Shown here in pieces: positions 5,232 through 49,117 of a DNA stretch of 64,000 bases (the first letter of the stretch is position 1; the number at the start of each line of letters is the position of its first letter). Location: NCBI RefSeq assembly GCF_001677475.2, contig NZ_CP015229.1, one strand, 5' to 3'. The notes below the pieces were generated by a model. That model saw only the letters and a list, made by a program, of their open reading frames with translations. It had not been told where the DNA came from and searched no databases. The position numbers were made by a program, and so were the translations under genes. The stretch is from Escherichia coli. Its GTDB lineage: Bacteria > Pseudomonadota > Gammaproteobacteria > Enterobacterales > Enterobacteriaceae.

Positions 5232-5365
5232 AGTTTGCTCCTGCCATAACGTGAAGAAGCAATGACCTGGTGGTCCGTGACTTCCCTACGCTGGCATTAT
5301 CCAGATCAGGTGATACGGGTATTTCTCAGCCTTCACGCAGAAGGGCACCCCGAGTCGTTTGGTTG
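5232..5365 (-). promoter_or_regulatory. TPP (thiamine pyrophosphate) riboswitch in thiM leader
   Basis: Minus-strand sequence reads ...GGGGTGCCCTTCTGCGTGAAGGCTGAGAAATACCCGTATCACCTGATCTGGATAATGCCAGCGTAGGGAA..., the classical thi-box aptamer, immediately upstream of thiM. Confidence 0.9.
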
Positions 5366-27730: not shown

Positions 27731-28051
27731 ATGATCGTGCAAAAAGAGCTGGTCACTATTTACGATTATGAGGCCCCTGTACCTGAAGAGCCGTTTTCCT
27801 TCAGGCTTGAGATCCATAAACGCTCTGAATTATTTACAGGTTCCGTCTATCGACTGGAACGATTCCGGCTACGTCCAACATTTCATCAACGTGATCGAGA
27901 AGATGTCGACCCGCTAATAAATGATGCGTTGATTTATATAAGAGATGAGTTTATTGATGAGCGAAAATTACGAGGTGAATCACCTGAAACTGTAATAGCA
28001 ATTTTTAATCGCGAACTACAAAATATATTCAACCAACAAATAGAAAAATAG
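27731..28051 (+). CDS. yehK: small acidic protein of unknown function
   Basis: 106-aa ORF 60 bp downstream of paralog array; recognised as YehK. Confidence 0.8.
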   Translation: MIVQKELVTIYDYEAPVPEEPFSFRLEIHKRSELFTGSVYRLERFRLRPTFHQRDREDVDPLINDALIYIRDEFIDERKLRGESPETVIAIFNRELQNIFNQQIEK

Positions 28052-28061
28052 CTTTATTAAA

Positions 28062-28081
28062 GGGGGAAACGGTATTCCCCC
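28062..28081. terminator. bidirectional intrinsic terminator (yehK / small toxin ORF)
   Basis: Stem GGGGGAA/TTCCCCC with 6-nt loop between convergent yehK (+) and the 29-codon ORF (-). Confidence 0.6.
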
Positions 28082-28104
28082 TTAGATGCGTTTCAATTTG
28101 CCCG

Positions 28105-28194
28105 TTACTTCAACAAATCAATCAACCGTAACAGAGCCACTAATAGCTCCAGTACAGCAATGAGCACGGTTAACTTTTGTGTCAGCGTGTCCAT
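28105..28194 (-). CDS. zorO: 29-aa hydrophobic peptide, type I toxin-like (ZorO-like)
   Basis: ATG 28194 preceded by AAGGAG SD; translation MDTLTQKLTVLIAVLELLVALLRLIDLLK; ~175-nt leader from a consensus promoter; leader contains a 19-nt site complementary to the divergent sRNA. Symbol is from recollection of the ZorO-OrzO architecture. Confidence 0.6.
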   Translation of the reverse strand: MDTLTQKLTVLIAVLELLVALLRLIDLLK

Positions 28195-28375
28195 CCGCTC
28201 TCCTTATTAAGGAGCGCAATACCAGCACCTTACCCTTACACTGCCTGTCGATACTGGTTTACGTATGTTGGACCACGATGTTGCACTCCGGATCAGGGCA
28301 CCACCTGCAGCACCACCCGTCCGGTAGCCAGGACTTAAAATTGGTCCGATCCGGCGCAACGTCCCAACCGTCTGG

Positions 28376-28426
28376 ATTATAAATCTCATTATCTTAATTG
28401 CAACGGGGTCCACCGATGGTTATAAT
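28376..28426. promoter_or_regulatory. divergent sigma70 promoters sharing a palindromic -35 hexamer
   Basis: Plus strand: TTGCAA (28398-28403), 17-bp spacer, TATAAT (28421-28426). Minus strand: same TTGCAA, 16-bp spacer, TATAAT (complement of 28376-28381). Confidence 0.7.
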
Positions 28427-28432
28427 TCGTTC

Positions 28433-28515
28433 GTTGGAACACGATGTTGCACAGGCTGCGGTGTTGGGCCTGAAAATAGTAAATAAAAGAACCTGCCTCA
28501 CCAGCAGGTTTTTTT
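28433..28515 (+). ncRNA. orzO: small RNA, candidate type I antitoxin (OrzO-like)
   Basis: Consensus promoter directly upstream; 5' end UUGGAACACGAUGUUGCAC is complementary (18 of 19) to toxin leader site at 28267-28285; ends at strong terminator CCTGC-N7-GCAGG plus T7 (28492-28515). Confidence 0.55.
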
Positions 28516-28626
28516 ATTTACTGTGATCTGCTTTCCAGATATTTTTCGCTCAAACAACTAATGCGCAAAACATTTATTGCGCGTAAAATATCGTTTATTT
28601 CATTAATACATTTCAGGGATGAATAT

Positions 28627-48944: not shown

Positions 48945-49117
48945 GATGAGCATTCAGATAGTGGTTCACGCGCACGGGTTGCGCACCGCCGGAGTAAGGA
49001 TTTACTGAGGCTAGCGACGCCATCATAACGAGCAAAAAGTGCGATCGTCAAAGGAGAATCGTGAGGAAATGCTGCATTGCTGACATTTACGCCAGCAATG
49101 CAACACAAAAGAACTTT

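Follow-up and report, generated by a model that had tools for sequence, protein, structure and literature searches.

What is encoded in the spacer between yehK and yehL of this Escherichia coli strain, and does the single mismatch between its small RNA (sRNA) and the transcript that the sRNA would target weaken repression? An earlier note on this DNA had proposed a type I toxin–antitoxin module like ZorO/OrzO at this place, and peptide identity, an Rfam match and the flanking genes all agree with that proposal. The window, by which we mean the whole 64,000-nucleotide stretch analysed, encodes a 29-residue peptide, MDTLTQKLTVLIAVLELLVALLRLIDLLK, on the minus strand at 28105-28194, exactly as the earlier note had quoted it. 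The peptide is identical to the ZorO toxin sequence, both in the published comparison (PMC11264685) and in our alignment of module copies. A scan of all Rfam families placed OrzO-P (RF02083) on the plus strand at 28440-28515, where the full-length model matched with 101.3 bits (gathering score 60 bits), and this was the one copy above the gathering score in the 64-kb window. In the RefSeq annotation of seven homologous loci, yehI-yehK lie on one side and yehL-yehM on the other. The locus is very probably a single-copy zor/orz type I toxin–antitoxin module of the P nucleotide type that carries the ZorO peptide, and by analogy it would function as zorO/OrzO does. Its parts are listed in Table 1.

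Table 1. Features of the zor/orz module and their positions in the window.
Feature	Position	Strand	Remarks
Probable toxin-mRNA terminator hairpin	28062-28081	-	GGGGGAAUACCGUUUCCCCC followed by UUUAAU; presumed 3' end
zor toxin ORF, 29 codons and stop	28105-28194	-	peptide identical to ZorO
Shine-Dalgarno (SD) sequence AAGGAG	28205-28200	-	5 nt before ATG; mRNA +164 to +169
SD-sequestering hairpin (predicted)	28197-28217	-	inverted repeat; agrees with published occluded ribosome-binding site (RBS) (PMC5397157)
sRNA target	28267-28286	-	mRNA +83 to +102; overlaps GGAGUG
Conserved GGAGUG standby-like motif	28289-28284	-	three-base overlap with target
First 28 nt of toxin mRNA, +1 = 28368	28341-28368	-	putative cis-inhibitory segment, lost in the delta-28 form; by homology to zorO (PMC3919570, PMC5397157)
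Toxin promoter -10 TATAAT	28376-28381	-	promoter scan and module comparison
Palindromic -35 TTGCAA	28398-28403	both	common to both divergent promoters
orz promoter -10 TATAAT	28421-28426	+	promoter scan and module comparison
Orz sRNA, OrzP type, ~83 nt	28433-28515	+	Rfam; +1 from V1 numbering (PMC3919570)
sRNA seed	28433-28452	+	within Orz sRNA
Intrinsic terminator of Orz	28490-28515	+	stem 28490-28496 / 28504-28510, then T-run (seven T) to 28515

Modules of this kind are already known, and single-copy and orz-only configurations have been catalogued across E. coli. The zor/orz family was reportedly predicted by Fozo and colleagues in 2010. It was validated in 2014 (Wen et al., PMC3919570), the zorO leader was dissected in 2017 (PMC5397157), and a 2024 survey of more than 2,000 E. 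coli genomes included single-copy strains and the orz-only remnant of K-12 (Shore et al., PMC11264685). The value of the present locus is mainly for annotation, since both toxin ORF and sRNA readily escape notice. PGAP annotates nothing in the yehK-yehL spacer in any of seven RefSeq records (O157:H7, K-12 MFDpir, WP4-S18 and four others), and scans of the 29-residue peptide against NCBIfam and PADLOC, libraries that cover very short type I toxins poorly, returned no family. For the P-type pair with its conserved internal mismatch, repression is judged in the papers searched by rules derived from the O-type pair.

The window module is a P-type copy in its nucleotides and an O-type copy in its product. 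Over 411 nt it is 96.8% identical to the yehL-proximal copy of O157 and 88.3% identical to the yehK-proximal copy (zorO/orzO). The V1 triplet at sRNA +9 to +11 reads ACG (28441-28443), V1 being GAA in OrzO and ACG in OrzP (Wen et al. 2014, PMC3919570). Judged by sequence, the leader target, the sRNA seed and V1 are of the zorP/orzP type, and the peptide has the ZorO sequence. Relative to ZorO, ZorP carries T3S and ZorQ carries A20S; the ZorO sequence is the commonest, accounting for 72.5% of zor ORFs (PMC11264685). In O157 it is the yehK-proximal copy that encodes ZorO, and the yehL-proximal copy encodes the T3S variant, i.e. ZorP.

The toxin ORF varies little. Fourteen module copies from ten sources include seven distinct ORF sequences that encode four peptides, and MDTLTQKLTVLIAVLELLVALLRLIDLLK is unchanged in ten of the fourteen. 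Seven codons vary; five of these differ by synonymous changes only, and the two nonsynonymous ones are both conservative (codon 3, T/S; codon 6, Q/K/R). On this codon variation, the peptide is under strong purifying selection.

The pairing between sRNA and leader shows on the plus strand as a 20-nt direct repeat (28433-28452 vs 28267-28286) with one difference, at 28439/28273. The predicted duplex of seed and toxin mRNA had -32.7 kcal/mol; none of 1000 shuffled seeds was as strong, the best reaching -25.6 kcal/mol. The pairing is real and far above chance. Its pattern is 6(1)13, with 19 of the 20 nt paired and an A (sRNA +7) facing a G (mRNA +96) at the mismatch. The earlier note had described 19 paired nucleotides with one mismatch. 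That complementarity holds, with ranges that were one base out of register (28434-28452 pairs with 28268-28286, not with 28267-28285), and the ~83-nt sRNA holds as well, with a start that homology places at 28433 rather than 28434, hence twenty paired positions. An RNAduplex run of the whole sRNA against the whole mRNA gave -65.7 kcal/mol with large loops and was disregarded because it ignores intramolecular structure.

According to the published pairing rule, repression takes at least 15 continuous nucleotides or at least 17 discontinuous ones with one internal mismatch (Wen et al. 2014, PMC3919570). The 17-nt variants 6(1)11 and 5(1)12 repress zorO fully and 16 nt do not (PMC3919570). With 19 paired nucleotides, the window pair lies above the discontinuous minimum of 17. 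Predicted cognate duplexes are similar in strength for all three locus types, at -30.8 (P), -29.6 (O) and -30.0 kcal/mol (third type), and non-cognate duplexes fall between -14.0 and -21.2 kcal/mol, with OrzP/zorO-type cross-duplexes at -17 to -21 kcal/mol. These weak non-cognate energies agree with the published failure of OrzP to repress zorO (PMC3919570). Comparison of the three types also identified two-sided compensatory changes that keep Watson-Crick pairing at seed positions +5, +6, +9, +10 and +11, which argues that the interaction and its specificity are both under selection.

Position +7 is A in all of the sRNAs and is mismatched in two of the three types. The A:G mismatch was found in every P-type copy examined (O157, WP4-S18, S65EC, CB8671 copy 2, E. 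whittamii copy 2 and Escherichia sp. MOD1-EC7003), so that by sequence it is a fixed property of the P type and not specific to one strain, and it is not predicted to abolish repression. We also considered the mismatch as the mark of an O/P recombinant with non-cognate parts and rejected this, since leader and sRNA are each P-type and all P-type loci have this pair.

A different view of the mismatch is that it makes repression leaky or defective, so that the P-type copy would be a weakly controlled or decaying toxin gene. The mismatch does lie inside the seed, single positions near V1 can be critical for OrzO (PMC3919570), and the searched literature yielded no direct test of OrzP against zorP, the only tests of OrzP there being against zorO. 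A mismatch present in every P-type copy examined is, however, one that has been maintained rather than a recent lesion, and the third type is likewise mismatched at +7. The window pair has two more paired nucleotides than variants published as fully repressing, its predicted duplex energy (-30.8 kcal/mol) is on a par with the proven O pair, and 99.8% of full loci were scored as repression-competent (PMC11264685). We regard leaky repression as very unlikely. The mismatch that the earlier note had pointed out is there; its suggestion that the mismatch tunes or weakens repression finds nothing here to support it, given the duplex energy and the pairing rule. The reading that we retain is a P-type pair in which the sRNA would still repress its toxin.

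Two divergent promoters had been described as consensus. Both sites are present, each near-consensus with 10 of 12 matching positions: a toxin site, TTGCAA-16-TATAAT, at 28403..28376 on the minus strand, and an orz site, TTGCAA-17-TATAAT, at 28398..28426 on the plus strand. The scan alone does not exceed chance, with two promoter-like sites observed in the region and 2.7 expected from shuffles. The reality of both promoters rests on conservation together with published start-site mapping. All 15 modules compared, from eleven sources, have the geometry TATAAT-16-TTGCAA-17-TATAAT, and the spacer sequences vary between types. The toxin -10 TATAAT shows 100% conservation in the published survey (PMC11264685 Table 3).

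Could the ORF and the short RNA have arisen in the spacer by chance? Promoter-like sites are no more frequent in the region than in shuffled sequence, seven RefSeq records leave the spacer blank, and the peptide has neither an NCBIfam nor a PADLOC match. Against this stand the Rfam match far above threshold, a peptide that is identical across species despite synonymous changes, the invariant promoter geometry of the 15 modules, a pairing far beyond chance, and an extensive experimental literature on the zor/orz family. Conservation and the published experiments refute a chance origin, to which we assign practically no probability, and we continue with the locus as a zor/orz module.

Because the two promoters have a single -35 hexamer, RNA polymerase might occupy only one of them at a time, in which case initiation would be mutually exclusive and the module would behave as a stochastic switch between toxin and antitoxin; we consider this speculative and on balance unlikely.

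A separate observation is that the 5' end of the toxin mRNA (GUUGGGAC-GUUGC, 28341-28368, minus strand) resembles the sRNA seed (GUUGGAAC-ACGAU-GUUGC, 28433-28452, plus strand). In local alignment the two have blocks GUUGG...GUUGC in common, with a shuffle p of about 0.012, and the resemblance is partly forced because +83 to +102 is the pairing partner of both segments. It would fit a history in which the toxin promoter and its cis-inhibitory leader were duplicated in inverted orientation and gave rise to the antitoxin. In the zor/orz literature that we searched, we found no discussion of the shared -35 hexamer or of the resemblance between leader and seed.

With its start set by homology at 28368, eight bases downstream of the last -10 base, the toxin transcript has a 174-nt untranslated region (UTR), in which the RBS occupies +164 to +169 and the sRNA target spans +83 to +102. 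The published values for zorO are a 174-nt UTR, an RBS at +164 to +169 and an EAP at +73 to +102, at whose 3' end OrzO binds (PMC5397157). The leader anatomy of the window thus maps exactly onto that of zorO, given the start site by homology. The long leader of about 175 nt in the earlier note becomes 174 nt on this numbering, and the strong SD sequence AAGGAG that it had described stands (Table 1). The EAP and the GGAGUG standby-like motif have both been described for zor (PMC5397157, PMC11264685). Position 28220 is T in the window and C in each of the 13 other module copies (A instead of G at mRNA +149); it sits just upstream of the anti-SD stem.

In the predicted fold, +73 to +102 is base-paired to nucleotides 1-23 of the primary transcript, with pair probabilities of up to 1.0 between nucleotides 9-21 and +75 to +89. 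The SD sequence has a predicted unpaired probability of 0.07-0.08 in both RNA forms. Removal of the first 28 nt (delta-28) raised the mean unpaired probability of the target from 0.33 to 0.43 in the window and from 0.31 to 0.56 in the O157 zorO control, a predicted gain in accessibility that goes in the right direction but is weak. Compared with shuffled controls, the leader folds have no extra stability (z = -1.6 and -0.5).

At the other end of the transcript, a GGGGGAA/UUCCCCC hairpin (-16 kcal/mol in a fold of the 3' region) lies just past the yehK stop codon and is duplicated with each module copy in tandem arrays. The toxin mRNA probably ends at this hairpin, which would make it about 311 nt long and not the ~270 nt proposed before.

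The short plus-strand RNA with a strong intrinsic terminator was recovered as first described, with a stem followed by a T-run. The terminator region, 28478-28522, consists of an inverted repeat whose 19-nt arms match almost perfectly, flanked on either side by A-runs and T-runs, and from its sequence the terminator looks bidirectional. A terminator scan reported it in the minus-strand orientation only. Near-symmetry of the terminator accounts both for that minus-strand call and for a weak minus-strand OrzO-P match; this match and the Thr/Trp-leader matches fell below threshold and were set aside as terminator look-alikes. Elsewhere in the window, two further Rfam matches exceed their gathering score, a TPP riboswitch (5266-5362, minus strand, 71.2 bits) and a Peptidase-S11 RNA motif (48949-49029, minus strand, 72.8 bits).

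These parts suggest the following course of events. From the minus-strand promoter, a toxin mRNA of ~311 nt with a 174-nt leader would be made, and this primary transcript would be poorly translated, its first ~28 nt being paired with +73 to +102 and its SD sequence held in a hairpin. Processing at the 5' end (delta-28) would then free the EAP at +73 to +102, a ribosome standby or loading site, and the 29-residue inner-membrane peptide could be made; if overproduced, it would depolarise the membrane and deplete ATP. The divergent Orz RNA of ~83 nt would pair by its first 20 nt, in the 6(1)13 pattern, with +83 to +102, the 3' part of the EAP, and by blocking the standby site would stop translation and bring about RNase III-dependent decay of the mRNA. 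For the P-type copy, we infer toxicity, rescue by the sRNA, RNase III dependence, processing and the EAP from publications on zorO/OrzO, and the anatomy, family membership, conservation, pairing strength and covariation are observations made at the present locus and its relatives. In the published work, overproduction of the toxin arrests growth and the cognate sRNA rescues it in an RNase III-dependent manner (PMC3919570), and the delta-28 form, the EAP and the translational block were established by experiment (PMC5397157). ZorO inserts in the inner membrane, and its overproduction leads to depolarisation and a fall in ATP (PMC9860968). In aminoglycosides, cells with zor-orz in multicopy grow better, an effect that does not depend on toxicity, and no aminoglycoside phenotype was seen with a single chromosomal copy (PMC9860968).

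We then considered how widely the module occurs. Of 5,426 complete E. coli genomes, 5,232 matched the spacer in a megablast search and 3,392 did so over at least 80% of the query, many of them at two places. A single full pair is what 25% of E. coli assemblies contain. A scan of one genome per bacterial and archaeal species with a codon-degenerate pattern for the toxin N-terminus gave hits only in sp. E1V33, E. whittamii and sp. MOD1-EC7003, all of them Escherichia. The records of these three are unannotated; by sequence, yehL flanks the module in E1V33 and MOD1-EC7003, and the 3' end of yehK flanks it in E. whittamii. The earlier note had held that its reading would fall if ORF and sRNA were not conserved as a unit in other genomes; 3392 of 5426 E. 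coli genomes, and three further species of Escherichia, carry the whole module.

The spacer between yehK and yehL measures 1,240 bp with two tandem modules (O157:H7), 576 bp with one (the window) and 306 bp in the K-12 derivative. The order of the arrays varies (O-P, third-P, third-O, O alone, P alone). The third seed and target type occurs in CB8671 copy 1 and GF4-3 copy 1 (seed GTTGAGATGCC, leader site GTTGAGTCGCC, plus strand), is mismatched at +7, pairs G with U at +8, and is probably zorQ/orzQ; its seed is clearly distinct from the P-type seed. Some strains (GF4-3 763-900 and another strain) have, between yehK and the first module, a putative ERIC-like repeat (…GTGAATTCCCAGGAGCTTACTAAAGTAAGTGACCGGGGTGAACG…). 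Only the end of this repeat is found at the start of the O157 spacer and none of it in the window, where the yehK stop codon adjoins the module. The neighbouring genes vary as well. yehK (window 27731-28051) has an indel in some strains, HQRDRED vs a shorter ND stretch (5 residues net), a frameshift in S65EC and one extra C-terminal residue (…QQIEK) in the window copy; yehM is annotated as a pseudogene with an internal stop in O157:H7 MB41-1 and SCU-387 and is intact in the window.

In the K-12 derivative MFDpir (1487-1792 of its locus), orz is intact and, of zor, there remain the -10, roughly 40 nt of leader and the -35 common to both promoters; target site and toxin ORF are both missing. The zor promoter that is left is directed into the 3' end of yehK. 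The orphan antitoxin of K-12 has been named OrzPmg and is expressed in MG1655, and about 30% of E. coli genomes are orz-only (PMC11264685). The belief that zorO-orzO is absent from K-12 therefore needs to be divided: the toxin ORF is indeed absent, and orzP and the zor promoter have been kept, as seen in the MFDpir sequence and from OrzPmg (PMC11264685).

Remnants of this kind lend some weight to the idea that the locus serves the cell mainly by its sRNA (e.g. acting on further targets in trans) or by something non-toxic that the RNA or the peptide does, with toxin–antitoxin behaviour appearing only on overexpression. Besides the K-12 derivative and the other orz-only genomes with their expressed example in MG1655, the spacer query was matched in 5232 genomes and most of it in only 3392, and the non-toxic R23L variant still gives the aminoglycoside protection seen with multicopy zorO-orzO (PMC9860968). 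The strong purifying selection on the peptide speaks against this idea, as does the coevolution of seed and target, which argues that the interaction between toxin and sRNA is itself selected; an alternative target is not known. We treat such a role as a minority possibility and prefer the toxin–antitoxin reading.

Among known type I systems, hok/sok, ldr/rdl and ibs/sib also have a small hydrophobic toxin repressed by an sRNA. These are cis-antisense pairs, whereas the window transcripts have no base in common and are complementary over 20 nt rather than at least 60. Transcription at the locus would start at 28368 (minus) and 28433 (plus), 65 bp from one another, and proceed outward in opposite directions, and with non-overlapping transcripts the locus is not placed in the cis-antisense class. 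It is closer in layout to tisB/istR-1, shoB/ohsC and dinQ/agrB, which have divergent non-overlapping genes, ~20 nt of pairing in a long 5' UTR far upstream of the RBS, a sequestered RBS, and 5' processing that exposes a standby region contested by the sRNA (PMC5397157). Unlike in these systems, both window promoters use one palindromic -35, and the peptide has no sequence relation to theirs. A search of 28052-28560 for a LexA box (CTGT-N8-ACAG, one mismatch allowed) found none, in contrast to the SOS-controlled tisB and dinQ, and we rejected membership of the SOS-regulated divergent group (tisB/istR-1, dinQ/agrB) on that ground.

Within its own family, the module resembles the characterised zorO/orzO pair of O157:H7 in the identical 29-residue toxin, the same Rfam family and a divergent sRNA that acts through its 5' end; it differs in overall sequence (88.3% identity) and in seed and target, at +6 and +9 to +11 among other positions. 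It differs from zorP/orzP of O157:H7 in having T3, the ZorO residue, where ZorP has S3, and from OrzP of O157 and K-12 by two sRNA substitutions (28458, C for T; 28465, G for A). In O157:H7 there is a second copy, whereas the window strain has one only, directly adjoining the yehK stop codon. With zorP/orzP of O157:H7 EDL933 (z3290 locus) it shares 96.8% identity over 411 nt, the same seed and target including the +7 A:G and V1 = ACG, the yehL-proximal position and the same promoter geometry.
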